From Candidatus Iainarchaeum sp. (GTDB lineage Archaea > Iainarchaeota > Iainarchaeia > Iainarchaeales > VGJJ01), in contig JAUYHT010000001.1 of assembly GCA_030688545.1 (NCBI GenBank), forward strand, positions 1-32,000: a stretch of DNA of 32,000 nucleotides, read 5' to 3'. Position numbers and translations under genes: made by a program. This document shows positions 5,401 through 23,001 of the stretch, piece after piece; positions within the stretch are counted from its first letter, which is position 1; each line of letters starts with the position of its first letter. The notes beneath the pieces were generated by a model. That model was not told where the DNA came from and did not search any database. It saw only the letters and a program-made list of their open reading frames with translations.

Positions 5401-6218
5401 GCGCGGCCATGCAAACCGCCATCCGTGAGAGGGATTTGACCCGAGCGAAAGAAATCGTGGAGGAGGTGGATTTGGCGGTAAAGGTTGTTGATTCCCCAAC
5501 CATGGAAGAGGAATCGACGGACAGTGGAATAATCAGAATAGAAGAGTGGACGGCCCGCGCCCAATCTATTTTAGATGCCATCACGGCCTATAAGAAGGAA
5601 TTGGGGATCACGTGCCCCAAATTGGGTGAGGTGGGGTATGTGTGCCCCATGGATGAGAAGCAGATCAAGGAATTGGGAGACGAGATGAAAAGTTTAATGA
5701 AACAATTCAAAGGGGTGGATTCGGTTTCGGATAGGGATGCGGAGGAAATTGAGGCGGTGTTGGATCGGGCGTCTCAACGTGTGGATGAAGCCCGGCAACT
5801 CATTCGGGAGATGGGAGAGCAATCCATGAATCGGGTGATAAACACCGAGTGGGATGAACCACGTGTGGTGGATGCTATCCAGCAGGGGAAAGTGGCCCTG
5901 GCTGCGGGGGAGTGGGGAAAAGCCATCTATATTGGCGAGAATATTCGGCGCTATTTGGAAGAGTGGAACGCCGGATCGGGGTTAGCGACCCTTCCCCCGG
6001 AAAGCCTTCCCGTGATTGGTATTGGAATATTGGCGGGGGGAGGATTAGTGTACCGGTATTGGAAACGGAAACACCCGGAAGTGGTCATCCCTAAGCGGTT
6101 GCCCCGCGCATCGTCAACTGAAAAGGTGGAAGGAAATACTAAAATGGCATTTCCGCGTCCGGTCTCCCGGGAAAGCACGAAAGAAACCCCGGCTGTAGCT
6201 TCCCAAAAGCCGCTATAA
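2487..6218 (+). CDS. 1243-aa exported surface protein: lipobox-like signal peptide, long helical/coiled-coil regions, a central beta-rich region and a C-terminal TM anchor
   Basis: The N-terminus MQMAWGLLFVIVFLSGC has an L-S-G-C lipobox-like motif. The sequence is E/A/R/L-rich and helical, with a beta-rich segment at roughly aa 620-860. The C-terminus LPVIGIGILAGGGLVYRYWKRK is a TM helix with a basic stop-transfer, followed by a ~55-aa tail. TATA-like GATTTTAAG lies ~28 nt upstream. Confidence 0.85.
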   Translation: MQMAWGLLFVIVFLSGCVDYQLTGAEIELCLASTETHVTHIPWCDDQKTCTAAWEKASGGNGTFSPATLRAEKSVIESWIFANRARDELEKTGRACAAGKAEEAYTQGVVGAHHLKKALYEVEQAQLAALDALREVIEDAHTLGLEEVRDSEAFQAYAEALTMWQDIQTGSASGEVGRLWKENNAYLEDIGEAIQGSRVESYAVNQASAFSWFETALKRSDESAAKQVLRFSSVWQSLLSAVVQGYDATRLFSLVGKLEADEMMERVENGVGLDRGIVPRMLHTVERVRTGVEGLEADEIQMETTIRERIQLLQGEWEIVKEDWRAWEKIGESLRTWTGATLGGRDESSSDGFPGSALLERHGILRLERMGNTLPLGKRVVRWRTFAREVEAAAEKIEGERERLQEVGHACVALADEWRENEIVGVQEAAEEVLSEDSKQLVDSCERLLVVLAAEANQLVDLREEDPLVECNERVVRYANALGDDTSAFTVELWWQAYPESELAVAACQSRLAHYMGLYESDAVVQEWMMIRKELRTYAEMLSFIVMTRPEVGEEGNAREWMAKMAQFLDDSPQDIISLDIVAKKNREGRDMRGELDSAMQKMWQAHAERSHWKLLSGVRLSHPREKVDWEWKVTNPFGEMVVKEWVARVDKPGFITLNSTGFLEDGGKLLIPIREVGKDGIILRGTSDGTFIRSEKEERVVEVVGEDVGVIQHMTWDGSYFPVSIALGWEVSHPKAVFLSARNGKGNVEALLEQGEMVLRMNVEDEQDFLEISYIIRGGLPHETRLVEQRTHLGQVFSTYEWHVKNTAHLAVATDIPTSIQAEPLFTSAVRVDEGGREVAYMVDRGNQVILEMVALAPGGERTFNITIVAPEDLGVWRANIQSLLDELDLLEGKLGERKKWEVDALRQDLLKLLAGEDRQKIAAALPGIRKRLDTLWADHQAEEKEFEYVWREFEDKPTATLEPERLAAWRAAMQTAIRERDLTRAKEIVEEVDLAVKVVDSPTMEEESTDSGIIRIEEWTARAQSILDAITAYKKELGITCPKLGEVGYVCPMDEKQIKELGDEMKSLMKQFKGVDSVSDRDAEEIEAVLDRASQRVDEARQLIREMGEQSMNRVINTEWDEPRVVDAIQQGKVALAAGEWGKAIYIGENIRRYLEEWNAGSGLATLPPESLPVIGIGILAGGGLVYRYWKRKHPEVVIPKRLPRASSTEKVEGNTKMAFPRPVSRESTKETPAVASQKPL

Positions 6219-7355: not shown

Positions 7356-8237
7356 ATGGACCCTTCTATTTCACCCCAAAAACAAAATTTTTCTCCCACC
7401 TGGGTGGAGGAGCGAGTAACCCGTCTGAGGGACGAACTTGGGGTGGGGGGGTATTCTCCCAGAACCATTCGCATGTATACGCTGTATGTTAGAAAATACT
7501 TGGAAGGATTATTAATATTGGGAAAACCCCCTGAAGAGGCCTCTAAACACGATATTATCACCTTTCTCGCCCGGGCCAGGACTGCCACTACCTCCAATGC
7601 CACCTTGGCGTTGATGCATGCGGCCTTGACCTTTTACTATAAACGGCACCTCAACTTGAACCTCATTGAAGAGATTTCCATTCCTAAGAAGGCTAAGAAG
7701 CTCCCAGTGGTGTTAACTATTCCTGAGATTAGGATTATCTTCAAACACACCCCCCCTGGGAGAAATAGGTTATTACTTCAATTCCTATATTCAACCGGTT
7801 GCCGGGTCAGCGAAGCCGTCGGTATGAAGGTAGACCAGGTGGATTTTGATAATTTAGTGGCCAACGTGCGCGGCGGGAAAGGAAATAAGGATCGAATTCT
7901 CATCCTTTCTCAGAAATGGGTGGGAAAAGCTAAATCCTATGTGAATCGAAAGAAGGTACCCACCCCCTTCTTGTTTTCCAAGAAAAATGGAAAATCGCTG
8001 TCGACGGATACCATTGAACGCATCGTGAGGCAAGCCGCCCAAAAAGGGGGTTTGACTAAACGAGTAACCCCCCATGTCCTACGCCATTCCTTTGCCACTC
8101 ATTTATTAGAAGGTGGTGAAAATATTCGAAAAATTCAAATTCTGTTGGGCCATGCTAACCTGAGTACGACATCCATCTACACCCACGTCTCCAATGAGGA
8201 GCTTAAACGGGTGCAGAGCCCGTTTGATAAGATATAA
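7356..8237 (+). CDS. tyrosine recombinase, XerC/XerD (archaeal XerA-like) family
   Basis: 293 aa. It has an N-terminal SAM-like core-binding domain (YSPRTIRMYTLYVRKYL). The catalytic residues are recognisable: TGCRVSEAV (Arg), HVLRHSFATHLL (His-x-x-Arg) and LGHANLSTTSIYTHV (His...Tyr). Confidence 0.85.
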   Translation: MDPSISPQKQNFSPTWVEERVTRLRDELGVGGYSPRTIRMYTLYVRKYLEGLLILGKPPEEASKHDIITFLARARTATTSNATLALMHAALTFYYKRHLNLNLIEEISIPKKAKKLPVVLTIPEIRIIFKHTPPGRNRLLLQFLYSTGCRVSEAVGMKVDQVDFDNLVANVRGGKGNKDRILILSQKWVGKAKSYVNRKKVPTPFLFSKKNGKSLSTDTIERIVRQAAQKGGLTKRVTPHVLRHSFATHLLEGGENIRKIQILLGHANLSTTSIYTHVSNEELKRVQSPFDKI

Positions 8238-8305
8238 GGAAAGAATGTGTTTCAGGCGTAACCAGGTTCAACATAATACATTAAATAGCCTAATCAAAAT
8301 CCATA

Positions 8306-8328
8306 TTATGTAGTAAATTTATACATAA
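8306..8328. promoter_or_regulatory. inverted repeat TTATGT-N10-TACATAA (copy 1), with an extra TACATAA half-site at 8344-8350
   Basis: The same half-sites with the same 10-nt spacing occur again at 8858-8880. Confidence 0.45.
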
Positions 8329-8503
8329 CTAATTATTTTGGATTACATAACTCAACCTAACCCCCCCACACTTCCACTACTCCCAAATAATCAGAAAAGA
8401 AAAAATAGGGGTCATTCAAGATGAAAACACCCATTTTTTCCTAAAAGCTTAAATATTCGATTACGATTCTATGCATCACTTCAAATGATTCAGGGGGGCT
8501 GTT

Positions 8504-8818
8504 ATGACTGTACGCATTTCAAAGCTATTCGGGATGGATATCTATACTGATAACGCCGAATACAAAGGAAAAATTTTCGATCTCGTAATCAATCTTGAAA
8601 AAGGGAAGATTGAAACCATGACAACCGAACCATTAAAGGTGCGCACCAAACAGGAAGCACGCAAAATCATTTCCGAACGCAGCATCCCCTATCAGAATGT
8701 TTTATCCGCCAAGGATATTTTAATTGTAGGCACCCGATCCAGGCCTCGATCGGAAGAATCGGATGCACAACCCGAACTTCCACGTCGAACACCCTATACG
8801 GCTTATCGACGGCGATGA
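8504..8818 (+). CDS. PRC-barrel domain protein
   Basis: The N-terminal ~75 aa (ISKLFGMDIYTDNAEYKGKIFDLVINLEKGKIETMTTEP...AKDILIVG) match the archaeal PRC-barrel pattern. A GGGGGG SD-like motif lies 7-13 nt upstream. Confidence 0.65.
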   Translation: MTVRISKLFGMDIYTDNAEYKGKIFDLVINLEKGKIETMTTEPLKVRTKQEARKIISERSIPYQNVLSAKDILIVGTRSRPRSEESDAQPELPRRTPYTAYRRR

Positions 8819-8857
8819 TATCCAGCACCAGGATATCACCTATAATTAAAAACTCTA

Positions 8858-8880
8858 TTATGTCTTATCTAACTACATAA
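8858..8880. promoter_or_regulatory. inverted repeat TTATGT-N10-TACATAA (copy 2), between a TATA-like box (8841-8852) and the 8935 start
   Basis: It has the same architecture as 8306-8328. Its position downstream of TATAATTAAAAA fits an operator. Confidence 0.45.
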
Positions 8881-8934
8881 GAGATTACTCTCTACTAATC
8901 TATCATCCATTACCGGAACTACGGGGGGTCTATT

Positions 8935-9531
8935 ATGGCAAAAGGATATTTCATTCAATACAAATTCATCTTACCTGATAATGTAAAACATTCCACATAC
9001 ACCTATCAAAAATTATTCAGAGCCATATATGGATATACTCAAAATGTTACCAAATCTAATGGAAAAACCTACCACTACCACCGTAAAGGGGTTTTATCAG
9101 ACACCCCCTATTATCGCCCTGGGAAAAATACTGTAATTATTCACCCCAACGCTTTTTCAAAATTTAAAAATTTTTTTATGACAGGTCAAAATCCATCTCA
9201 CAATTGGCGTTCAAAGGGAGATTGGAAGGCAGTCTATTACATGGATGAAAAAGAGGTGGATGACACCAAAATCCTGGCTGCTATGGAGGATTTGCTCGAG
9301 AGGACCTATTTATCCCCCACTGGCAAGAATCCATTAAAAATAAATGATGAAATGAGCATATTGTTGGACAAGCACCGCCTCCAAGAAAACATTGATGAAA
9401 CCCGCAAAAAAATCGTTCTTCAAGAGGCTCAAACCATCACATCCCATGAATGGTTCCGGATATCGCACACCAAATCAAAATTATTAACTGAATTCAATGA
9501 CAAAGTTAAGTTATTGAAGGGATTGAGCTGA
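8935..9531 (+). CDS. 198-aa hypothetical protein (low-GC module)
   Basis: Long ORF with a GGGGGG SD-like motif upstream. K/N/Y/I-rich. I recognise no family. Its 3' end overlaps the convergent 9511..9978 gene by 21 nt. Confidence 0.6.
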   Translation: MAKGYFIQYKFILPDNVKHSTYTYQKLFRAIYGYTQNVTKSNGKTYHYHRKGVLSDTPYYRPGKNTVIIHPNAFSKFKNFFMTGQNPSHNWRSKGDWKAVYYMDEKEVDDTKILAAMEDLLERTYLSPTGKNPLKINDEMSILLDKHRLQENIDETRKKIVLQEAQTITSHEWFRISHTKSKLLTEFNDKVKLLKGLS

Positions 9532-9978
9532 AGCGGGAACCACCGCTTCTTCCTCTTCTTCCAGACTGATCATCAACGTTTTTTTTCGCCATCTCATTTT
9601 TCCCCCCGCAACATTTACCTCTAGTAACCCAGAATCAACCAATGTCTTCAAATAAGGGTATAGACTCCTCTCATTCTTATATTCGACTTGAAATAACTCT
9701 TTCACGCGACGAAGTATTTCATCCATGGCGGTCCACTCATCAAAAGATAGCACGTGGCTGATATGGTAGGCTTGGGTATCCTCTCGGAACTTCAAATAGT
9801 CCCATAAATTGACTATCCTAAAACGTGGCGAATGGTTAACATTTTCTTCTGTTATTTGAGTGGTTAAAATAGTGGTCTGGGTTCCTTTTTGTGGTCTCTC
9901 AGTAATAGGTTCCATATCGACCCATTGTTCTATCTTTCGTATGGTTCTGAAAAGGGACCGTAGGACATTTTTTATCAT
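9511..9978 (-). CDS. 155-aa hypothetical protein with a probable C-terminal winged-helix DNA-binding domain and an acidic tail
   Basis: The segment WTAMDEILRRVKELFQVEYKNERSLYPYLKTLVDSGLLEVNVAGGKMRWRK looks like helix-turn-helix plus a beta wing. The gene sits directly behind the GTAATTAC array. Confidence 0.55.
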   Translation of the reverse strand: MIKNVLRSLFRTIRKIEQWVDMEPITERPQKGTQTTILTTQITEENVNHSPRFRIVNLWDYLKFREDTQAYHISHVLSFDEWTAMDEILRRVKELFQVEYKNERSLYPYLKTLVDSGLLEVNVAGGKMRWRKKTLMISLEEEEEAVVPASAQSLQ

Positions 9979-9988
9979 GGTAATGATA

Positions 9989-10077
9989 GTAATTACCGTA
10001 ATTACTTAAAAACTGTATGGTAATTACTAGTAATTACCAAAACATATAAAATAATGAGATATAAAGTTGGTAATTAC
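9989..10077. promoter_or_regulatory. array of five perfect 8-bp palindromes GTAATTAC (operator- or iteron-like)
   Basis: Perfect copies lie at 9989-9996, 9998-10005, 10020-10027, 10030-10037 and 10070-10077. Degenerate copies lie at 9979-9986 and 10159-10172. The motif occurs nowhere else in the window. The first pair lies between a TTTTTAAG box and the ATG at 9978. Confidence 0.65.
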
Positions 10078-10294
10078 CAAATCTGTTAATAAGGGGGTTG
10101 AATTTCATTCAGTGAGTCTGAAATAATCATAAAATATAGTTAATATATTAATAAATTGTAATTAACGTTAATAAAAAAGGTAAAAAATTGAAAACGAGGG
10201 GTCTTTTTTCAGTTATTTTACCCAAAAAAGGAAAGGTGGAAAATATTGAGAGATCTAAAATTCAGTGATCTGGATTATAATCAGAAAAAAGGGA

Positions 10295-10369
10295 TAGCGG
10301 GGGAAGGATTTGAACCTTCGATCTTCGGGTTATGAGCCCGACGGGCACTCCAGGCTGCCCCGCCCCGCT
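10295..10369 (-). tRNA. tRNA-Met (CAU), archaeal initiator type
   Basis: Hand-folded cloverleaf: AGCGGGG / CCCCGCT acceptor stem with A1:U72, anticodon arm TCGGG-CTCATAA-CCCGA with three G:C pairs, T arm GAAGG-TTCAAAT-CCTTC, discriminator A. CCA is not encoded. Confidence 0.88.
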
Positions 10370-10494
10370 ATTAAGTATTAACGTTATTCCGTTAATCGTA
10401 TGTTGAATCTATTAGGCCATTTCAGGGCAATTAATCTTAGGATCATTTGTATTTTAATATTTTGGATTGTCCTAAAATGTGTGTTTTGCAACCC

Positions 10495-11034
10495 TCATAC
10501 ACTCTTTTGCAACGCTCCAAGTTCCCTTTTGAGAAAGGTGATTTGAGTTTGGATATTTTTATTTCTTTTAGCGGAATCAATGGGTTGCATCATATCCCCA
10601 CATTCGGGGCAATGGAATTCATATTGGGCGGCAATCTCAAAAGCCGTCTCCTCACATTCCTTCCCGCAGGCAAAAAATTCATGTGATTTATCGAATCGCG
10701 CTTTCTGTTCCAATTTCTGAAGCTGTTCCGAATGCTGTTCGATAATAAGTTCCACAATCCGTCGTTTCTTGATCTCCCACGTATAGGTATACCACCCTGA
10801 ATTCTTATTTTTGGTTTTATTATAACAGGCGATCCCCCGGTAATGAAGGCGATTCAGGATGCTTCTTATTTCGGTTATCTTGAGTTTTTTCAATTTTTTC
10901 TCGATATCTTCATCCAAACAATCCCCATTCCGGTCCATGCAAATCCGGACCACATCAACAGCTTCGTCGCCCCCCACTGTCTTGAGAAAATCTTGTGTTA
11001 TCTTATACCCTAATATGTCCCCACTCTTTCCCAT
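10495..11034 (-). CDS. tfe: transcription factor E (TFE alpha)
   Basis: 179 aa. It has an N-terminal winged helix (ITEIRSILNRLHYRGIACYNK..WYTYTWEI) and a C-terminal zinc ribbon (CGKEC...CPECG). Confidence 0.85.
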   Translation of the reverse strand: MGKSGDILGYKITQDFLKTVGGDEAVDVVRICMDRNGDCLDEDIEKKLKKLKITEIRSILNRLHYRGIACYNKTKNKNSGWYTYTWEIKKRRIVELIIEQHSEQLQKLEQKARFDKSHEFFACGKECEETAFEIAAQYEFHCPECGDMMQPIDSAKRNKNIQTQITFLKRELGALQKSV

Positions 11035-12450: not shown

Positions 12451-15222
12451 TCAATTCCTCGTCTCGAAATTCTTATTATGGTCACCCGCATTAACGAAAA
12501 TATTCATATCCCCGCTGAAACACAATTGATTAGTGTCTCCTCCCCCCAGGCCGGTAACCAACCGGGCGGGGGTGATAGCATTACTCTGGTTGTATTGCCG
12601 GCATGTCGTGGCGGTTGGAGGGGTAGTGGTTCCCGTCACGCTGCAGTCCTTTTCCCATCCTCCCAACCCATTATCATCACTCCCGCACCCGCTTCCGGTC
12701 CCCTGCCATACCTTCAGCACAATATTCAAATCCGTTCCGGTGAAGGCGCTGCTGAAATTTCCATCTAAGTCCACGCTGCTCCCCCCCACGTTCGTAATAG
12801 TAAAAGGAGATAGGGTTTCGCTTTGGCAAAAATTGGTGGAAGTGGGGTAATAGGTGAGATTCAGATCGAGGTAGTCGATCGTCATACAGCTTTGTTTATT
12901 CCCGGTGTCAGTCGAGGCCGGCACTCCGGTTACGAGAAGGGTGATATTCCCGTCGGTGGACACGTATTGAGGGATATAGTTGCTTGTGTTTCCACTAATG
13001 CTCCTTCCCCCGGGTGACCCATCTCCTGTTCCGGGTAGGGAAGCGATCGTTTCGTATAGGTTGCGTGTGTAGTTCCAGATGAATATGTTTAGGTCGGCCG
13101 GATTGTATGTCGATGTTCCGCAGATTGAACCCAATGGGCCGGTTCCACTGTTTCCTACGAACATGACATTAATATCCACAATGCGTTGAACGTCGGTGAA
13201 GGTGGGTCGGAATACCGCACGCATCGCGGGGTACACGGTTGTCGTTGTCTCAGACTGAGTCCAGTATGATGTATCATCAGCGGATATATTGGAATAATTG
13301 GTGGTGGTGAATTCCACGGATGGGGTGTCATTCGTAAACGGTGGTTTTTCCGTGACATTGCTCTTATACCCGACGTGCGTTGAGCTTGGTTCCGAAACCC
13401 CGTCAAAATTCTGGTCTTGGGTGAATGTTTGGAAGTCGAACCGGATAGGTCGCGGCTTTATTTTGGCCGCATTCCCATCGGCGTCAGGGTCGAATACCGC
13501 ATCATGTTCATTAAAAAAGAAGGCGCTGGCCGTGCAATTCCCTCCATAAGTAATAGTATGTCCGCTCGTCGACACCACATTGAATATGAATAGGGTTGTT
13601 GCCGTATCTTTCGCCTGCGGAATGGTGGCGGTGGGCCATTCGATAACCTCATATCGATATTCAATTGATTGCCCGGTATCCGATCGCCATAAAGTAATAG
13701 TATTCGTGGCCGTCAAACGCAGGTTGATGTGCCCTCGCGGAAGGGCAAACCCGGTGCCAGTGCTCGTGGAGGTTTCCCCAAACACGGAAGATTGATTCAG
13801 GTCAAATACCGTGTCGATGGTTTCCGTCCAGGTGTCCGGCTCGCTCTGCCCGGTCCCCCGGCTCCCCCCCCGTCTTTGGACACTCATTTTATTTCCATCC
13901 CCCTGCGTATTCTCGATGATCCATACCACTGCATCGTGGGCCACGTTAGCCCCGGATTTCAACTGAAATGATAGCGTACTGGTGTCCTTGAGATAAGCCA
14001 ATTGCCCCAATTCATCTAACCCGCCATTCGATGTTCGCAATTGGGATTCGATAAATGTCTTGTTGATATCCCCTACTGTGGGGGAAAAGGTCTCAGTTTC
14101 TTCAGATCCAGCGGCCGAATACGTATGCGTCACCCGCCGCACATTGGCCCAATGTTGCCCAATGAATTCAACCACCGCGTAACTGACGTGCGCGGTTCCC
14201 GTTGTATCCCCCCGTGTGAAGGTAGGCGTATTAGTCGAATCCGTCCAGGCCGAGGTGAATAATGCCCGATCCCCCGTCCCATTGGCCGTCTGGTCGGCGG
14301 ATTGTCCCGTGATAAATATGGCGACTTTATTATCATCCGCCACCACCCCGACGGCTTCCCCCGTGAGATTACCACTGGCCGCCGTGGCCACGCTGGAATC
14401 CCTCACAATAAACTCATTATCCCCTCCCGGTGGTCCCACGTATTCAATTATTTCCCAAGTAATGGTGGTGTTCAGGGTCCCACTGCTCTGTTCGCGGGCG
14501 AAGGTAATGGCGCTCAACAGGTTTTGGGGATTTGAAACGTATGTAAAGAGATAAGCCGGGTTCTGGGTGGTTTGCCCGATTTGATTCCCGCTCGCCGTGA
14601 GTCGGGTCGCGGTGTGCCGGATGAATGCTTTGTTGATGTCCGCCGGGGCATCATAATTGACGTCGGCGGTAATGGTCACCGTGCCCACATTCACTGGGAT
14701 GACGGCTTCTCCTCTCTGGATATGGAAATCCGCCGTCTGATTGTAGGCATACTCTTTCACTTCCCCGAAGGAAAATTCCAATTGATGCTTTCCCCAGCTT
14801 TCCACCCGGCTCCGTTCATATATGGTTTCGTCGCATTCGAAGTTTGGAATAACCCATTCATCCCCCTCCCATTTTTCCTCCAATTTTTCATCCCCGCAAT
14901 AAACCCCCTCCATTGTCAAATCCCCTCTCAGTCCATCAAACCATTTGGTTTCTCCCGCCGGGGCAATCCGCAGGTCCGCTTTTCCCTCCACCTTCAAACG
15001 CACTTCCCATATTCGGTGGATAATAGGGTTTTCCTGCGGATTCAAAATAGTGAGCGCAGGCGTCGTTTCAGGGGGATAAAAAAAAACGTCTTCCTCCTGG
15101 ATCGGCAAAATTCCTCCATCTCTTTCATCCTCCATTCCCCCCGCCCCGGCCGCGGAGGCCATCCCCATGGCGAGCAGGATGATCCACCCCCCCAATAATC
15201 CCCCTTTAATCCAATAGCGCAT
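12451..15222 (-). CDS. 923-aa exported giant protein with no membrane anchor, many N-x-S/T sequons and an internal four-fold repeat
   Basis: Signal peptide MRYWIKGGLLGGWIILLAMGMASA. There are four ~90-aa repeats, each with a D[IDL]N[KQ] start motif and a hydrophobic-x-[VI][IV]E[YFNW] end motif. The C-terminal domain contains Cys. No TM segment at the C-terminus. Confidence 0.85.
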   Translation of the reverse strand: MRYWIKGGLLGGWIILLAMGMASAAGAGGMEDERDGGILPIQEEDVFFYPPETTPALTILNPQENPIIHRIWEVRLKVEGKADLRIAPAGETKWFDGLRGDLTMEGVYCGDEKLEEKWEGDEWVIPNFECDETIYERSRVESWGKHQLEFSFGEVKEYAYNQTADFHIQRGEAVIPVNVGTVTITADVNYDAPADINKAFIRHTATRLTASGNQIGQTTQNPAYLFTYVSNPQNLLSAITFAREQSSGTLNTTITWEIIEYVGPPGGDNEFIVRDSSVATAASGNLTGEAVGVVADDNKVAIFITGQSADQTANGTGDRALFTSAWTDSTNTPTFTRGDTTGTAHVSYAVVEFIGQHWANVRRVTHTYSAAGSEETETFSPTVGDINKTFIESQLRTSNGGLDELGQLAYLKDTSTLSFQLKSGANVAHDAVVWIIENTQGDGNKMSVQRRGGSRGTGQSEPDTWTETIDTVFDLNQSSVFGETSTSTGTGFALPRGHINLRLTATNTITLWRSDTGQSIEYRYEVIEWPTATIPQAKDTATTLFIFNVVSTSGHTITYGGNCTASAFFFNEHDAVFDPDADGNAAKIKPRPIRFDFQTFTQDQNFDGVSEPSSTHVGYKSNVTEKPPFTNDTPSVEFTTTNYSNISADDTSYWTQSETTTTVYPAMRAVFRPTFTDVQRIVDINVMFVGNSGTGPLGSICGTSTYNPADLNIFIWNYTRNLYETIASLPGTGDGSPGGRSISGNTSNYIPQYVSTDGNITLLVTGVPASTDTGNKQSCMTIDYLDLNLTYYPTSTNFCQSETLSPFTITNVGGSSVDLDGNFSSAFTGTDLNIVLKVWQGTGSGCGSDDNGLGGWEKDCSVTGTTTPPTATTCRQYNQSNAITPARLVTGLGGGDTNQLCFSGDMNIFVNAGDHNKNFETRN

Positions 15223-15301: not shown

Positions 15302-18300
15302 ATGTTCTCTGCGCTCACCCGTCATTCTCTTTGGTTAGGCCTCCTGATACTATTCGTGATGGCTCCTTTTCTCGTGGTGGCGCAGGAGCGGGTGGGTGAT
15401 GTGGCGTCATCTAAAATCCGTCTCGATTTTTCCTTCACCATTGTCGCGCCCTTGGATGGGGAGAAAGTGTCCGGCACTTTTCTTCTCCTGCTCCACTCCG
15501 ATGACCAAATAACCCGCGCCGCCGCCACCATTTCCTCTCCGGGTGAAAAAGTCCCGCTCGTCACCCTTTCCATTGACCCCTCTTCCAGACAAGCGGAATG
15601 GGATACATCTTCCGCCCCCGATGGCCCTTATCAAGTGGTAGTCGAAGCCTGCGAGGCCGATATCTGTCTCTCCCGTTCCAAGATATTCCACATCGCCAAT
15701 GCGACCGCCCCGCCCATACGCGATGATAAACCCCCATCTCCTCCCTCTCCCATTGTACCACCAAGCGAATCGGAATTCGAATCCCTCACCCCCGAACCCA
15801 GCGAGAAACCCATTCCCCCGGTTCCCGGAGACCGCGTGCGCCGACGCCAGGTGGCTATCCCCGCTCCTTCTCCCGCGGATCCCTCTCCGCAAATCCCTCC
15901 CCCTCTCCCGCCGGAGCCGTTGTTCACCATTTTTCCACCTAATGTTTTTTCATTAGTGGAAATCCGCAATCGCGCGGATACAAATACGCTTCTCCGTGGA
16001 AGCGGGGAGCAATTCCAATTGCCCTCAGGCATCTATAACGCGCATGTCACTATCCCCAAACACCCCTTGGTTTCGATCGCTTTGGAGCGCTTCTCCGTGG
16101 ACCAGGACGCGCAACTGTTTCAGATAACCCCATTATCGTCCCCCCCTATCTTGTCCATCAAGGATATCAATTACAACGTCCAGGCCGCTTATTCCCTGTC
16201 ATTCGGTTTTCCTTTCGAGCGGGCGATCCTCGCGTGGGCCAAGCGGGAGAATGGAAATCTCTTTTACTGCTCCTCTCCCGATTCCTTATCTAATTCCTGT
16301 CGCGTCACCTGGCAACCCGTTCCGGTCTCAAAAAACAGATTTGAGCTCATTTCCCTCTCACAGGAGAATTGGATTGTATATGGGATTCCCCAGACCAAAA
16401 TCCAAGACCCATTACCTATTCATTCAATCATCCTCTCCAATGCCCCCGGAGAGTTCTTTCTTCTTCAACCCCCCAAAAAATTAGGTCCGTTTGACGGGAA
16501 TATGGTAGACGTGGAGGAAGGTCGATATACTGCGCGCCTCCATTTCCACGACCTCCCCCTCTCCGTCGTTCGTTTAGAAGATGTGAATATTTCCCATTCC
16601 GGCACCGTGTTCACCTCTCAACCTATCCCCCTCTCCCCGGATGCCATCGATCGCAATATCACTGACATTTTCCATTTCGACGTGGGTTTTAATTTTGATT
16701 CCTGGGATTTCCGTCTCGACAAAATTTTTGAGGAAACCATAAACTATTGCACCCGCTGGTCGACCGACACCCTTTCATGTGGGGGTCAGTGGGTCGCGTC
16801 CCCATCCCCCGTTCTAGAACCCGGGGTAAATGTCTTTGGATTCACTCGTAAGGAGATTAGCGCCACGCCTACTATTCCCGACATTAACGCGTCATCGGAT
16901 GACCTGGATCGGGCCATCGCCTGGTTGCAACGTCTTCATGCGGGCAAGCGTTTCTTTTATGCCGATGATGCTCGCGCTTCCTATTCCTCTTTGGAAACCC
17001 TTTTTTCCCAAGTTGAGATTAATCTCGAATGTCCATCCCCTGCTCCTTTCATTCAGCAGGATGCCACCACCCCGATAGTGGATCCATCACCCCGCGAGGG
17101 TTTCCCATCCCCTCCATCATCCAATCCTCTTTCAACTCCCCCAGATGTTTCTAGTCAAGACCATGTTCCTTCTTCCAACGCGGACGGCGAGGAAAACGGT
17201 TCCTCCAACCCCCCATCAAACCCCTCGTTTCCCCCGCGCGGTTCCCCCCTATTCTATACCAATGATTGGGAAGATCATTTTCCAAACCCTCCGGGCTGGC
17301 GTCAGCGCGAAGACATTCTGTCTTGCGGCGGGATTTCCCTGCGTAACTATTTTGACCCCCAGTTCTCCCCGCGCGATTCCCCCAATTCAATTTTCATCGG
17401 GCGTTCGGATAACGCCCTCAAGCAGCAGTTTGTCTTAGCCAATAATGATAGCGTACCCCGCACCCGCATAATCAGCATCCGTCTCCATGCCCCTTTCCCA
17501 TCGATTCTCTCCGAAACCGAAAATATATTCCCAAGTCCTTTGTATCGTTTGGTGTATCCATCCCCTGACACTTCTCCTTTCTCCCATTCCACTATTCGCT
17601 TTCTCGATGAGGACGTTTCCCAAATTGGTTTCTATGATTTTTCTGATTTGATCACCGGGGGTTTCGACCCATTAGTCGTCGTGCACCGCAAGGCGGAAGA
17701 AACCGTGATAGACACCCTTCTCGAAATAACTCTCCTTCCCGGTCAATCCATTCTCCTGGACCCCCATTATTTCCTTTCCAGTTCCGCTAATTACACCGCT
17801 CGCTGGTCGGGGGGAATCGCCAGCGATCGCCTGGGGGCCCTCAACGCCTTGACGACAGAGAATGTTCCCAATGCCCCCGGCGAAGGCGTCCAACTCCTCA
17901 ACCTCGACAATGGTTCCTATGCCAATGATCTCCTTATCGCCGCTCCTCTCGCGGATACCAATTCCAAGGCCGATGCGGGGGCGCTGTATATGGTATTGAA
18001 TATCGATTCGCGCATGGGAAATTTCGACATGAACACCCCGTCCTCATACGATGCCCGTTTCTCCGGTTCCCGAGCGGGGGATATGCTCACATACCCCACC
18101 CAAGTGGGGAAAGGGTTCCAAGTATTCGATGCGGATGGCGATGGCTCCACGAATGACTTGCTCGTGGTCGCGGGGAGTGCCACCTTCACGGGCGCGAATG
18201 CGGGTTCTCTCTATTTCATCCAGGACATCCATTCCAAATCGGGTTTACTCGATCTGAACAACCTAAACAATTTCACCGCCCGCTGGGACGGGTTATCTAA

Positions 18301-20524
18301 TTCCAGGTTGGGATGGACCGGGTATTCGGGGGATGCCTTCGACGTGTATGATGTGGATGCCGATGGCATCCTGGATGACCTGGTATTATCCCTCCCTTTC
18401 GGGGACACCCAATCCCGCACCGATAACGGGGCGCTTTACCTCATCAACAATGTCACCTCCCGCTCGGGCATCAATCCCCTCTCGTCCTCTTCCTCGTATA
18501 CCGTGGCCTATCACGGCGCGACCGCCTCCGATAAGATTGGGGGCGATTTAAACGGGGGATTAGGCTACCAAATCGTCAACATGGATGGGAATGCCTCCGC
18601 CAACGATGTGGTGCTCGTAGCTCCCTTCGCGGACCTCCTTCAAGGTTTTTTTTTTATCCTCAATGACAATGGGGGGGTCTACATCATTCCCGATTTCAAC
18701 ACGCGAACCGGGGATGTGGATCTTTCCTCGGTGTTTTTCCCATTATTCAATGGCAAGTTGGACAATGACAATGTGGGGTATAGCAATGACAGCAATCTCA
18801 CCGCTCAGATCGTGAATACTGATGGCAATGCCAATGCGAATGATCTCCTCATCACCTGCATCCTCTGCGACAATTCTCGTACCGACAATGGGTCCATCCA
18901 CTTATTCAAGGATGCCCATCTCCGTACCGCGGCCACGGATTTGACCACGAGCGATGTGTATTGGACCCCCATGGTTAATTTGGATCAATTCGGCTACACC
19001 GCGGGCGGGGGTTTGGGGGCCCAGGTCGTAAATCTCGATGGGAATGTGGCCGCCAATGATATGATTGTTACGTGTGCCCGCTGCAACACCGCGAGCATCC
19101 TGGAGAATGGCACCGTCTATATCTTTCGAGACATCAACACCCTCTCCGGGGCCAAAGCCCTGAGTGTTTCCTCCAACTACTATCTCCGTTTCTATGGCGC
19201 TACCAACTACGACCGTATTGGTGACATTGGGAAATCCGGCCAATCTGTTCAGCTCGTGAACACCGATGGCAATGCACTAGCCAACGACCTGGTGTTCGGT
19301 TCCCGTGCCGTTACCACTTCCCCCGGAATAACGGGCGCAGTATATTTTGTGCGCGACCTCCTTTCCTTCTCCGGCTCGCTCACTTTGGCTACATCATCCA
19401 ATTACACCGCCCGCTGGTCCCCTCCTTCGGTCGACGACAATTTCGGTTACACCAACAATTCGGGTCCCGGCATCCAAATAGTGAATCTCGATAATGGTAT
19501 AGCTACCAATGACCTCATTGTTACCGCGGTGCGCGCGGACATTAATTCCAAGACAAACGCCGGGGGGGTATGGGTCATGAAGGACATCAACACCCTCTCC
19601 GGCCAGATTATCTTGGATACGGATGCCAATTACAGCGTGCGTTTCAACGGGGGGAAAACCGAGGACTATCTGGGTTACACCATTCAAGGGGGCCAAGGAA
19701 CCTGGATGGTGAATCTGGACAACAATGCTTACTCCAATGACCTCGTCCTCGCGGCCGCGAGCGCCGACACTACTCTTCAGGATGCGGGTTCCGTTTACAT
19801 CATCCAGGATGTGGATTTCAAATCAGGCAATATCGATTTAGATACGAATACTAATTACCTTAAACGCTATTCCGGGGGCGATGCCAACCTATTTTTGGGC
19901 TCCACCCAATATGGGGGTTCGGGCCTCCGTTTGTTGGATTCGGATGGGGATTCCTTCCTCGATCTTTTTCTCACCTCCGTACAGGCGGACATCAATGGCA
20001 AGCCTCAGAGCGGAGTGCTCTATCGGATTGAAGATGTTTACCGTTTCCTCGACGTGGGGTTGGACTATTCTTTCACTCTCTCTCTCCCTGCTGATGGGTG
20101 TACGGATGGTAAAGGCAATTTCTCCGGGGGCACGAGTTGCCAGCGGGGGTGGGTGGGGGCCACGAGCGACACGCAGACCCAGGTGCAACCCGAAGGACAG
20201 GATGTCGATAATACCATCTCCTTTTTCGTCCTTGACAATCAGAGCACTACTTCCTCCGACTTCAATGTGTTCCTCGATCTCAATGCCGCGCTCCCCGGTA
20301 CCATCGTGTTCAAGGCATCCAATTCAAAAAGCGGGTATCAATCCACTTGCTCCGGCAATCCTGCTAATAATTGCGTGACCCTTTCCACGACCAAGAAATC
20401 CGTCGGCACGGCCATCTATTCCGCGGGGACGCAGGACCTCAACATCTTTTTCTGGGCCGATTTCACCAGCGCCCCCGATGGCAATGTGGATCGAAACGTG
20501 GGGAGTACCGCGCAATCGCCGTGA
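15302..20524 (+). CDS. 1740-aa exported giant protein: signal peptide, Ig-like domain, two proline-rich linkers, at least 10 FG-GAP/integrin-alpha-like repeats and a C-terminal Cys-containing domain
   Basis: Signal LWLGLLILFVMAPFLVVAQE. Pro-rich stretches lie at ~15702-15925 and ~17033-17250. The repeat pattern is NYTARW..[FLI]G....G.G.Q..N.DG....NDL....A..AD......GA.Y...D......G. No C-terminal TM. Confidence 0.9.
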   Translation: MFSALTRHSLWLGLLILFVMAPFLVVAQERVGDVASSKIRLDFSFTIVAPLDGEKVSGTFLLLLHSDDQITRAAATISSPGEKVPLVTLSIDPSSRQAEWDTSSAPDGPYQVVVEACEADICLSRSKIFHIANATAPPIRDDKPPSPPSPIVPPSESEFESLTPEPSEKPIPPVPGDRVRRRQVAIPAPSPADPSPQIPPPLPPEPLFTIFPPNVFSLVEIRNRADTNTLLRGSGEQFQLPSGIYNAHVTIPKHPLVSIALERFSVDQDAQLFQITPLSSPPILSIKDINYNVQAAYSLSFGFPFERAILAWAKRENGNLFYCSSPDSLSNSCRVTWQPVPVSKNRFELISLSQENWIVYGIPQTKIQDPLPIHSIILSNAPGEFFLLQPPKKLGPFDGNMVDVEEGRYTARLHFHDLPLSVVRLEDVNISHSGTVFTSQPIPLSPDAIDRNITDIFHFDVGFNFDSWDFRLDKIFEETINYCTRWSTDTLSCGGQWVASPSPVLEPGVNVFGFTRKEISATPTIPDINASSDDLDRAIAWLQRLHAGKRFFYADDARASYSSLETLFSQVEINLECPSPAPFIQQDATTPIVDPSPREGFPSPPSSNPLSTPPDVSSQDHVPSSNADGEENGSSNPPSNPSFPPRGSPLFYTNDWEDHFPNPPGWRQREDILSCGGISLRNYFDPQFSPRDSPNSIFIGRSDNALKQQFVLANNDSVPRTRIISIRLHAPFPSILSETENIFPSPLYRLVYPSPDTSPFSHSTIRFLDEDVSQIGFYDFSDLITGGFDPLVVVHRKAEETVIDTLLEITLLPGQSILLDPHYFLSSSANYTARWSGGIASDRLGALNALTTENVPNAPGEGVQLLNLDNGSYANDLLIAAPLADTNSKADAGALYMVLNIDSRMGNFDMNTPSSYDARFSGSRAGDMLTYPTQVGKGFQVFDADGDGSTNDLLVVAGSATFTGANAGSLYFIQDIHSKSGLLDLNNLNNFTARWDGLSNSRLGWTGYSGDAFDVYDVDADGILDDLVLSLPFGDTQSRTDNGALYLINNVTSRSGINPLSSSSSYTVAYHGATASDKIGGDLNGGLGYQIVNMDGNASANDVVLVAPFADLLQGFFFILNDNGGVYIIPDFNTRTGDVDLSSVFFPLFNGKLDNDNVGYSNDSNLTAQIVNTDGNANANDLLITCILCDNSRTDNGSIHLFKDAHLRTAATDLTTSDVYWTPMVNLDQFGYTAGGGLGAQVVNLDGNVAANDMIVTCARCNTASILENGTVYIFRDINTLSGAKALSVSSNYYLRFYGATNYDRIGDIGKSGQSVQLVNTDGNALANDLVFGSRAVTTSPGITGAVYFVRDLLSFSGSLTLATSSNYTARWSPPSVDDNFGYTNNSGPGIQIVNLDNGIATNDLIVTAVRADINSKTNAGGVWVMKDINTLSGQIILDTDANYSVRFNGGKTEDYLGYTIQGGQGTWMVNLDNNAYSNDLVLAAASADTTLQDAGSVYIIQDVDFKSGNIDLDTNTNYLKRYSGGDANLFLGSTQYGGSGLRLLDSDGDSFLDLFLTSVQADINGKPQSGVLYRIEDVYRFLDVGLDYSFTLSLPADGCTDGKGNFSGGTSCQRGWVGATSDTQTQVQPEGQDVDNTISFFVLDNQSTTSSDFNVFLDLNAALPGTIVFKASNSKSGYQSTCSGNPANNCVTLSTTKKSVGTAIYSAGTQDLNIFFWADFTSAPDGNVDRNVGSTAQSP
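17780..20046 (+). repeat. at least 10 tandem ~75-aa FG-GAP-like (beta-propeller blade) repeats inside the 1740-aa gene
   Basis: Each unit has a [FLI]G element and a DxDxDG-like Ca-binding loop (for example DADGDGSTNDL, DVDADGILDDL, NTDGNANANDL, NLDGNVAANDM), followed by GA-x-Y. The units are diverged at the DNA level. Confidence 0.75.
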
Positions 20525-21328: not shown

Positions 21329-21369
21329 ATGGGCTTTTATAATGCTTTTCGCGTGGATTTCTGTCTAGT

Positions 21370-21443
21370 GGGGCCATAGCTCAGTCTGGTAGAGCAGCGG
21401 GCTTTTAACCCGCGTGTCGAGGGTTCAAATCCCTCTGGCCTCG
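21370..21443 (+). tRNA. tRNA-Lys (UUU)
   Basis: Cloverleaf: GGGGCCA/TGGCCTC acceptor stem with one G:U, D arm GCTC-AGTCTGGTA-GAGC, anticodon arm GCGGG-CTTTTAA-CCCGC, T arm GAGGG-TTCAAAT-CCCTC. TATA-like CTTTTATAAT lies ~27 nt upstream. Confidence 0.9.
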
Positions 21444-21472
21444 TCCATTTCCCATTGGACCAACCGGGGTTA

Positions 21473-21512
21473 GGGGTCCTGTTTTTTTTCAGGACCCCAT
21501 ACTTTTGTTTTT
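21473..21512 (+). terminator. hairpin (GGGGTCCTG-T8-CAGGACCCC) followed by a CTTTTGTTTTT T-rich tract after tRNA-Lys(UUU)
   Basis: A 9-bp stem with an oligo-T loop and downstream oligo-T runs, which is archaeal terminator-like. The identical element follows the second tRNA-Lys at 22687-22727. Confidence 0.5.
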
Positions 21513-21537
21513 CGCGCACCTTTTTCCAAAAGGTGCG

Positions 21538-21618
21538 TTCATATCCCTCTGGCCTCGTTGCACGCTTTCGAGCGTGCGCCCCGAGGGACGAGGGGATTCT
21601 TCGAATCCCCGGCGGCCG
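21538..21618 (+). ncRNA. candidate structured RNA/repeat module X1 (tRNA-Lys 3' fragment plus two hairpins)
   Basis: 21538-21558 repeats the last 21 nt of the tRNA (20/21 identical). Then come hairpin GCACGCT-TTCG-AGCGTGC, an outer CCTCGT/ACGAGG pairing, hairpin GGGGATTC-TTC-GAATCCCC and the tail GGCGGCCG. Related modules lie at 22753-22822 and 22843-22913. Confidence 0.45.
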
Positions 21619-21716
21619 TAATGAACGGGGCTAGGCGTTGCCTATTTTCTCTTATCAAAACCGTTCCATTAATTTGGATTACATCCACTCGCAGGGTTTC
21701 CAACCATTTTTTGGGC

Positions 21717-22520
21717 TCATTTCCCAATTTTCTTTTTCCCAAGCAGGTCTTTCAATCCCTCAATCAAATCCACCGGGAATAATATCACGGTATTTGAGGG
21801 GGTTGGTCCCAATCCATCAATGGTTTGCAATGTGCGTAGCTGAATGGCTCCCGGCGTTCCGTTCATGATGCGCGCGGCCTCCGCGAGGTTTTTCGCTGCA
21901 AGCCTGTCTCCTTCGCTCTTAGTGATGTTCGCCCGCTTCTCGCGTTCGGCACTCGCCTGCCGGGACATGATACGTTTCAGATCTTCCGGCATCTCGATAT
22001 CCTGCATCTTGATATTTTCCACGGCCAATCCCCACTCCCCGGATTCTTTCCCCACAATAATGGCGATTTGTTCTCCTATCTTTTGTCGTTCTGCCAAAAC
22101 GTCATCCAAGTCCATGTTCCCGATCACATCACGCAGTGCCGTTTGGGCGTATTGTGACACAGCATACGTGTAATCCTGCACCTTGATGATGGCTTTTTTC
22201 GGGTCCTCTACCCTGAAATATACGACCCCATTGATAGCCACCGGCACATTGTCCTTCGTGATAGCCTGTTGTCGTGGGATGTCCATTGTCAACACGCGCA
22301 TATCGACAGTAACGCTTCGATCGATGAGGGGGATGATGAAGTTTAATCCCGGTTCCAATGTGCGTTTAAGCCGGCCCAATCGGAATACGATGGCCGTTTC
22401 GTATTGTTGGATGAGGCGCATGCTCGACAACAGCAGGGCGATCGCAGCTACGCCGATAATGATGATTTCCAACAGTGCCATATTCACTTCCTCCCCATAC
22501 CCTACTTCGACCCCCTTCAT
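21717..22520 (-). CDS. SPFH/band-7 (stomatin/prohibitin-like) membrane protein
   Basis: N-terminal TM IIIIGVAAIALLLSS. The SPFH core is recognisable: QQYETAIVFRLGRL..LEPGLNFIIPLIDR...TKDNVPV..NGVVYFRV.DP..A...V.DY..A....AQTALRDVIG. The C-terminus is coiled-coil with AEREKRA. Confidence 0.9.
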   Translation of the reverse strand: MKGVEVGYGEEVNMALLEIIIIGVAAIALLLSSMRLIQQYETAIVFRLGRLKRTLEPGLNFIIPLIDRSVTVDMRVLTMDIPRQQAITKDNVPVAINGVVYFRVEDPKKAIIKVQDYTYAVSQYAQTALRDVIGNMDLDDVLAERQKIGEQIAIIVGKESGEWGLAVENIKMQDIEMPEDLKRIMSRQASAEREKRANITKSEGDRLAAKNLAEAARIMNGTPGAIQLRTLQTIDGLGPTPSNTVILFPVDLIEGLKDLLGKKKIGK

Positions 22521-22583
22521 CTAAAAACCTGTCGAGAATGCGCTGTTTTTTTAACCGTTGTTTGGGGGTTCTTTCTTAGAATT

Positions 22584-22657
22584 GGGGCCATAGCTCAGTC
22601 TGGTAGAGCAGCGGACTCTTAATCCGCGTGTCGAGGGTTCAAATCCCTCTGGCCTCG
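22584..22657 (+). tRNA. tRNA-Lys (CUU)
   Basis: It has the same sequence as the 21370 gene except in the anticodon arm (GCGGA-CTCTTAA-TCCGC). Confidence 0.9.
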
Positions 22658-22799
22658 TCCATTTCCCATTGGACCAACCGGGGTTAGGGGTCCTGTTTTT
22701 TTTTCAGGACCCCATACTTTTGTTTTTCGCGCACCTTTTTCCAAAAGGTGCGTTCATATCCCTCTGGCCTCGTCGCACGCTTTCGAGCGTGCGCCCCGA
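22584..22799 (+). repeat. ~215-bp direct repeat, copy 2 (tRNA-Lys plus 3' flank)
   Basis: See copy 1. The two copies bracket the SPFH gene. Confidence 0.85.
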
Positions 22800-22913
22800 A
22801 CTCGGGGTATCTGCGATACCCCTGAAGAAAAAATATAGTCCGCTTCGTCCTGCTGCACGTTTTCGAGCGTGCGTGCCGAGGGACGAGGGAGGGTTACACC
22901 CTCCCGGCGACCG
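22753..22913 (+). ncRNA. candidate structured RNA/repeat modules X2a (22753-22822) and X2b (22843-22913)
   Basis: X2a has the tRNA 3' fragment, the UUCG hairpin and hairpin GGGGTATC-TGC-GATACCCC. X2b has CTTCGTCC...GGACGAGG, hairpin GCACGTT-TTCG-AGCGTGC (one C-to-T change giving G:U), hairpin GGAGGGT-TAC-ACCCTCC and the tail GGCGACCG. Confidence 0.45.
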
Positions 22914-23001
22914 AAATGTTTGGTTTAATCCCTTCTCCCAATAATTATTTTTTTAAACTCTGGGCGCCGCACGTTAGGTATAAGGATGGAGGTGGTTGAA
23001 T

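Follow-up and report, generated by a model that had tools for sequence, protein, structure and literature searches.

Bacterial genomes contain short dispersed repeats of the REP/BIME and ERIC/Correia types, extragenic hairpins that lie just past stop codons and between convergent genes and are thought to stabilise 3' ends or to assist termination. In E. coli, the trailers of tyrT and tyrV carry 178-bp repeat units, historically described as encoding RttR/Tpr, and the trailer repeat is annotated as releasing the small RNA RttR. In Archaea, tRNA fragments left behind by integrating elements are common, and in the published cases repeats of ~44 bp flank 9 to 23 kb of foreign DNA (PMC9897764). Archaeal RNA polymerase terminates at oligo-dT and does not need hairpins to do so (PMC2253867).

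Here we analyzed a stretch of 32,000 nucleotides from an Iainarchaeota contig (JAUYHT010000001.1, positions 1 to 32,000; hereafter the window), in which two tRNA-Lys genes are each followed by a partial copy of the tRNA 3' end and by a hairpin module. The features of the locus are the following.

21370-21443, +, tRNA-Lys(UUU), discriminator G73, encoded CCA absent (ARAGORN and Rfam RF00005, 71 bits)
21443-21500, +, degenerate module X1a: first hairpin GTCCA/TGGAC at 21443-21460, linker CAACCGGGGTTA, second hairpin GGGGTCCTG-T8-CAGGACCCC at 21473-21498
21514-21537, +, first trailer hairpin "a", GCGCACCTTTT-TCC-AAAAGGTGCG
21538-21558, +, first tRNA-Lys 3'-end fragment, from the T-loop to discriminator +1, 20/21 identical to the tRNA
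21559-21618, +, module A: UUCG-capped hairpin (hp1) 21560-21577, linker 21578-21591, variable hairpin (hp2) 21592-21610, tail GGCGGCCG
22584-22657, +, tRNA-Lys(CUU), differing from the UUU gene at 3 anticodon-arm positions (ARAGORN and Rfam)
22657-22715, +, degenerate module X1b with its T-run, a paralogue of X1a (model matches and repeat D1/D2)
22729-22752, +, second trailer hairpin "a" (repeat comparison)
22753-22773, +, second tRNA-Lys 3'-end fragment, 20/21 identical to the tRNA
22774-22824, +, module B: hp1 22775-22792, linker GCCCCGAACTC, hp2 22804-22822
22854-22913, +, module C: hp1 22855-22872 with a G.U pair, duplicated linker, hp2 22887-22905, tail GGCGACCG

The tRNAs of the window have G73, no encoded CCA and TATA-like boxes ~30 nt upstream, which points to an archaeal genome. 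The 21-mer TTCAWATCCCTCTGGCCTCGT occurs four times, in both tRNA-Lys genes and in the two fragments, which are 20/21 identical (shuffles expect 0.00), and the distance from the tRNA end to the fragment is 93 nt at both loci. A reading of this DNA made earlier from its letters and open reading frames (the sequence-only reading) had reported such a copy of the last 21 nt downstream of each tRNA-Lys, and that observation is confirmed. A degenerate third fragment considered before module C was not significant (p=0.95). The two loci share a tract of 227 bp (21358-21584 and 22572-22799) at 94-99% identity, and because this one homogenised tract spans both loci, modules A and B are not independent of each other up to the linker. 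Homogenised flanks combined with three differences in the anticodon arm suggest gene conversion around a selected anticodon difference.

Several other observations concern the setting of the locus. Short-read assemblies of the same organism (L001 and L002, from Logan SRR13727534), compared with window positions 21589-22612 and 22880 onward, are broken exactly at the tRNA-Lys/module repeats; hence the locus is missing or split in fragmented MAGs. A minus-strand tRNA-Gln placed by ARAGORN at 21388-21462, overlapping tRNA-Lys(UUU), is almost certainly spurious (Rfam only 16 bits), and the open reading frame at 22669-22944, which spans the repeats, was dismissed as a protein gene, with no Pfam match. 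The window also holds three very large open reading frames without a Pfam domain, at 2487-6218 (+), 12451-15222 (-) and 15302-20524 (+), of 1243, 923 and 1740 aa; large-ORF homologues occupy the syntenic place in relatives (1525-2612 aa), some with faint FG-GAP matches.

All three modules have the same order of parts, from hp1 through a CCGAG linker to hp2. The hp1 hairpin GCACGYTTTCGAGCGTGC is found three times in the window, at 21560, 22775 and 22855, against 0.02 expected by shuffles, and hp1 and hp2 fold in every window copy with z-scores from -2.4 to -3.9, the latter for module C. The UUCG-loop hairpin in each copy and a second hairpin whose sequence differs from copy to copy and yet always pairs, both described by the sequence-only reading, thus hold up. 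Its ~60-nt module does occur in three copies, but copy B, taken to be truncated, is complete, its linker of ~11 nt being of the family's canonical length. In A and C the linker contains a 7-nt tandem duplication, CGAGGG-A-CGAGGG, which also supplies the partner of a proposed outer pairing CCTCGT/ACGAGG. This pairing is confined to A and, as CTTCGTCC/GGACGAGG, to C; as neither B nor any copy elsewhere (at least 10 relatives) has it, the module has two helices and not three. The tail GGCGRCCG, described as conserved, is common to A and C. Modules A and B begin 1 nt past the fragment's discriminator-equivalent G plus T. The nearest T-run is 33 nt from module A, and the tail of module B is A-rich, so that neither has a close T-run. 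At the other gene ends in the window we found no module.

The module has relatives in other Iainarchaeota. A scan of the genome collection for hp1 gave mostly single chance matches, plus two loci in the complete Ca. Iainarchaeum genome CP064981.1, where the motif lies 0 nt past the FtsZ and thermosome stop codons and is followed by a variable hairpin and T-runs. A simple hairpin scan yielded six copies in ~37 kb of CP064981.1. Among the Iainarchaeum copies, one abuts the 3' end of the SRP RNA, one starts at the discriminator of tRNA-Ser(CGA) and one lies 26 nt past a CDS stop, and two are situated elsewhere than at 3' ends: copy I belongs to the leader of tRNA-Ser(GGA), and copy O lies between divergent genes. 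A covariance model (R1) built only from the six Ca. Iainarchaeum copies, hence from a different genus and without window sequences, detected modules A, B and C with 36.8, 36.5 and 30.7 bits (E = 1.5e-8, 1.7e-8 and 7.5e-7), the rest of the window scoring no more than about 11 bits, and it also gave the seventh Iainarchaeum copy, O. A second model (R2), built from the 10 strong copies (7 from Iainarchaeum plus A, B and C), scores module A at 59.3 bits and, in the relatives of the window, found a copy in L084 (22.9 bits, E = 1e-5) and one in L085 (15.2 bits), which lies 1 nt past an FtsX stop. The L084 copy is identical to module A at 38 of 46 positions (z~11) and sits at a different locus, beside tRNA-Phe. 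Members of the family normally start within 0-2 nt of the 3' end of a same-strand gene or RNA, as do copies X1, D, E, F and G and, relative to the tRNA fragment, A and B; copies C, I and O do not. Most members are in convergent intergenic gaps. Runs of T5 to T8 lie 4-18 nt downstream of copies D, E, H and X1 and of the L085 and L096 copies.

Searched against Rfam 15, including the hammerhead, twister, pistol, hatchet and HDV-like ribozymes, the modules remained unmatched at E<=10, and only tRNA reached the gathering score. The covariance-model check that the sequence-only reading had suggested therefore came out positive for further copies, in Ca. Iainarchaeum, L084 and L085, and blank for Rfam. 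We conclude that the module belongs to a dispersed, duplicating two-hairpin repeat family of Iainarchaeota (DPANN) that has no Rfam counterpart and is apparently undescribed. Scans by pattern were less informative: in genomes and metagenomes they returned mostly chance matches in high-GC coding sequence. A scan of viral contigs gave 6 matches to hp1 only and no module, and 26 viral matches to a 16-mer of the second hp1 type were all one conserved coding motif and are irrelevant.

This second hp1 type, GACCAAATTCCATATGGTC plus GTTCGG, occurs in the same layout at L096 11081-11140 (+) and at L086 6402-6330 (-) and 10865-10760 (-), where copies again mark gene ends, those of ftsZ, FtsX and tRNA-Lys. 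One second-type module of L086 encloses the tRNA-Lys trailer hairpin within its hp2. At the 3' end of the orthologous ftsZ in a relative of 88% identity, a variant module has kept the hp2 apex CTGCGTTGCAG, together with a covarying lower stem and an hp1 of another type. Modules G, I and O are followed by a third conserved hairpin, GAACCCTT-CTC-AAGGGTTC (L046 7020-7050, L083 2330-2350 and L083 4790-4885 (-)), and in copy O its loop holds an insertion of ~70 nt of AT-rich hairpins. DPANN contigs of low GC content (0.30) contain GC-rich multi-hairpin islands of ~150 nt with an hp1-CCGAG core (L059 2120-2320, L068 1990-2130 and L069 10950-11088); two of the islands lie directly against an intron-bearing tRNA encoded on the opposite strand, at its 3' end, and the islands have no Rfam match. 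We tentatively regard these islands as family members, their loci having been chosen by the search pattern itself.

The copies share a layout of ~55 nt: a hairpin of 6-8 bp closed by U-UUCG-R, a single-stranded linker with CCGAG or CGA, a hairpin of 8-10 bp and, often, oligo-T after it. Among copies the stems vary, and there is no variation in the loop UUUCGR or in the CGA of the linker. In alignments fitted to the model, 95.5% (13 copies) and 94.8% (10 copies) of the paired cells can pair, compared with only 29-46% in slid controls. Changes on both sides were seen for 12 of 16 pairs, and the covariation score was reached by 0 of 500 shuffles, again for a model-fitted alignment. A hand count over 14 copies gave 210 Watson-Crick pairs, 11 G.U pairs, at least 7 of them internal, 0 A.C pairs and 1 other. 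With 11 G.U against 0 A.C, the fold belongs to the strand of the module. The C-to-T change in copy C, for which a wobble pair had been noted, gives G.U on the + strand only. The proposal of a structured RNA with covariation and strand-specific wobble is thus supported and extended. The hp1 loop (UUUCG) could pair with CGAGA of the linker to form a pseudoknot; however, the positions involved are all invariant and a connector of 3-4 nt is too short to convince. Cores of C/D-box, H/ACA, K-turn, bulge-helix-bulge and hammerhead elements were sought by eye and not found.

The sequence-only reading missed two degenerate copies of the module, one at the discriminator base of each real tRNA-Lys. X1a begins at that base of tRNA-Lys(UUU), exactly where R1 and R2 score 11.1 and 12 bits, and is identical to Iainarchaeum copy G at 22 of 26 positions over hp1 and linker (alignment z~8). 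It is followed by a T-run (21503-21512) between tRNA and fragment, and oligo-T is also found at the second locus. Hairpins homologous to the trailer hairpin "a" (CTTTTyC..GAAAAGG) are present in the trailers of L080, L084, L085 and L086. Because a degenerate module directly follows each real tRNA-Lys, the locus reads as tRNA end plus module, hairpin, and again tRNA end plus module.

In relatives, the syntenic order is tRNA-Lys(CUU), SPFH gene, tRNA-Lys(UUU). L080, whose SPFH protein is 83% identical, and L084 have the fragment at both tRNAs; L085 has a degenerate fragment with 2 mismatches at the UUU locus and none at the CUU locus; L081 and L086 have no fragment, and L086 keeps the spacer hairpin. 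The fragments of L080, L084 and L085 are not followed by a module, and the module is absent from the syntenic tRNA-Lys sites of the closest relatives. In the relatives, the fragment forms the 3' arm of an acceptor-like hairpin of 7-9 bp, which is followed by a T-run. Each fragment of L080 carries the variant of its own tRNA, CCCACCGG versus CCCTCTGG, and in L084, too, the fragment mirrors its own tRNA (CGT versus CGC; C/T at position 66, T/C after G73). L084 9719-9848 is a tandem repeat (TRF; period 65, 2.0 copies, 80% matches) that comprises the last ~30 nt of tRNA-Lys plus trailer, and L080 has an array of period 50 and 2.2 copies between tRNA and fragment. On the window itself TRF reported no tandem repeat; what recurs there is limited to the 21 nt of the tRNA end and the layout of the module. 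Repeated tRNA ends were also observed elsewhere in the clade. In L080 3170-4022 (-), the 3' part of tRNA-Phe recurs ~745 bp further on as a perfect 31-bp repeat, and the interval holds a Fic/Doc-domain gene and a small ORF, as in a classic small integrated cassette without an integrase. In L057 7228-7441 (+), the 3' end of an Iainarchaeum tRNA-Ile is found again ~115 nt downstream as a stretch of 25 nt (TTCcgAATCCTGCCGGGCCTAATTC), and module H lies between the two on the opposite strand, making this another module-associated tRNA-end repeat.

How did the fragment arise? The sequence-only reading took it as a hallmark of site-specific integration into a tRNA gene, and this stands as far as the direct repeat of the tRNA 3' part goes, but the spacer of 93 nt contains no foreign genes. 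In relatives the form is tandem; the fragment is missing from L081, L086 and the L085 CUU locus, but the spacer hairpin persists in L086. Put as a full scenario, an integrase-borne element would have inserted into the T-loop/3' end of tRNA-Lys, leaving the tRNA as attL and the fragment as attR, and its interior would have been deleted to ~93 nt. We consider this quite unlikely. The repeat does span the classic identity block from T-loop to tRNA 3' end, tRNA fragments from integrating elements are common in Archaea (PMC9897764), and the tRNA-Phe repeat around the Fic cassette of L080 and the tRNA-Ile repeat of Iainarchaeum are cases within the clade. However, the spacer is gene-free and comprises X1, which is a module of the host family, a T-run and a trailer hairpin shared with the fragment-less L086, and the 65-nt tandem repeat of L084 continues for ~30 nt beyond the end of the tRNA. 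If a single element had entered both loci, the tRNA 3' ends on the attL side should be alike, yet the two ends are different, with each fragment agreeing with the tRNA it follows, and an old decaying att site would not match its tRNA at the diagnostic positions. A phage BLAST of the whole region matched only the tRNA itself. The sole recombinase in the window, the tyrosine recombinase at 7356-8237 (+), was rejected as the integrase of such an element, being a XerA-type NCBIfam equivalog (233.8 bits) and chromosomal; its gene adjoins a stretch of low GC content (0.37-0.40, 8000-11000) that ends at tRNA-Met 10295-10369 (-). Local duplication and conversion fit better with fragments that mirror their own tRNAs when the tRNA 3' ends differ. 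Since each real tRNA-Lys is followed by a degenerate module and each fragment by another module, we favor a partial tandem duplication of a unit made of tRNA 3' end and trailer module, which would be ancestral to the clade; that each fragment has stayed the same as its own tRNA would most likely be due to unequal exchange or to gene conversion within the locus. In L084 the tandem repeat is directly visible, and in the window the 21-nt identity and the repeated architecture point to the duplication. On balance, the fragment is more likely a product of local duplication than evidence of a resident mobile element. The reading as a whole, a REP-like gene-end hairpin repeat plus a partial tandem duplication of tRNA 3' end and trailer module, is the one we prefer, with about even confidence.

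What might the module do? The searches and alignments establish its family membership, structure, strand and positions. Most likely it is a co-opted, REP-like gene-end hairpin repeat with a putative 3'-end role. It would be co-transcribed as the extreme 3' flank of the upstream gene, where two stable hairpins would define or protect the transcript 3' end or insulate convergent genes; after tRNA and SRP RNA, it would be a trailer to be cut off. Such a role is suggested by the exact abutment to gene ends, the mostly convergent gaps, the frequent T-runs and the hp2 apex retained at the orthologous ftsZ, and is opposed by the hairpin-independent termination of archaea (PMC2253867), by copies I and O, which are 5' of genes, and by the module-free state of the other gene ends in the window and of the syntenic sites in relatives. 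A hairpin with a close T-run is present for X1, D, E and H and the L085 and L096 copies and absent for A and B, and modules A to C may be poorly transcribed from the tRNA promoter because oligo-T runs lie between each tRNA and fragment. As archaeal termination does not require a hairpin, the conserved loop and linker imply an additional role. Alternatively, the module could be a selfish MITE/REP-like repeat that spreads by some transposase or recombination and is tolerated only in the short gaps between genes of a compact genome, without a host function. Its presence differs at syntenic sites of close relatives, near-identical copies are found at loci unrelated to each other (33 nt are common to D and E, and hp1 to A, B and C), which suits a spreading selfish element no less than a functional one, L084 has an A-like copy at a different locus, and the density varies (7 copies in 37 kb in Iainarchaeum versus 3 strong copies in 32 kb in the window). 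We nevertheless regard a purely selfish repeat as unlikely: the offset of copies from gene ends is just 0-2 nt, the orthologous ftsZ site still has the hp2 apex, and 11 G.U against 0 A.C pairs indicate selection on one folded strand. Inspection of the flanks of D, E, I and O revealed neither terminal inverted repeats nor target-site duplications, which led us to reject a MITE, and a REP/BIME element proper was rejected because the palindrome is not conserved, variable stems with a conserved loop and linker being the opposite of REP elements. Very unlikely, in our opinion, is an active RNA signal or sRNA, be it an endonuclease site or self-cleaving RNA cut at the 5' edge of the module or an sRNA with a single-stranded CCGAGAAC seed, with the tRNA-end fragment supplying an acceptor-stem-like processing site. 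The module's 5' edge does coincide with the mature RNA ends of tRNA-Ser, tRNA-Lys and SRP RNA, the UUUCGR loop and the CGA linker never vary, the fragment in relatives is the 3' arm of an acceptor-like hairpin, and RttR provides a precedent for a small RNA from a tRNA trailer repeat. Yet the modules resemble no Rfam ribozyme or sRNA even at E<=10, a cut directly past the stop codon would be odd for mRNAs, and a loop-linker pairing is sterically tight and shows no covariation at its invariant positions. Its boldest form, to which we likewise assign a small probability, would be a dedicated DPANN 3'-end formation signal whose 5' edge is cleaved, by self-cleavage or by a nuclease specific to the lineage, so that tRNAs, SRP RNA and highly expressed mRNAs obtain their mature ends in organisms whose RNA-processing machinery is reduced, with the units of tRNA end and module processed into small RNAs.

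The RNA biology of DPANN is almost unexplored, as the organisms are uncultured and their genomes reduced. A conserved, covarying element placed precisely where tRNA, SRP RNA, ftsZ and chaperonin genes end offers a handle on how transcripts are finished, protected or insulated in compact genomes, and the family would be an addition to Rfam. The locus also illustrates that a partial tRNA copy alone is not proof of integration, since tandem duplication of a trailer combined with conversion leaves the same signature.

Among known systems, the module is like REP/BIME in being short, dispersed and extragenic, with same-strand hairpins at gene ends and in convergent gaps. It differs from them in its variable stems with conserved loop and linker, in its two unlike hairpins at fixed spacing and in the lack of a GTAG-type head; moreover, it also flanks tRNA and SRP RNA genes and belongs to an archaeal (DPANN) lineage. 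The likeness to archaeal oligo-dT terminators (PMC2253867) consists in the T-runs close past many family members. With archaeal att-site fragments (PMC9897764) the window shares a partial direct copy of the tRNA 3' end near the complete gene, of which tRNA-Phe in L080 is a genuine case, but in place of kilobases of foreign DNA the window has 93 nt of host-type trailer, and the form seen in relatives is tandem-repeat-like, each fragment following its own tRNA. The closest analogue of the window locus is probably the tyrT/tyrV trailer of E. coli. The array at tyrV (L124 905-1463; period 178, 3.1 copies) overlaps the last 19 nt of the tRNA, and like the period-65 repeat of L084 it consists of head-to-tail units that contain the tRNA's own 3' end and trailer. 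Unlike tyrT/tyrV, the window has diverged units, in which repetition is limited to the 21-nt end of the tRNA and the architecture of the module; its host is an archaeon, and its trailer belongs to a hairpin family spread over the genome.
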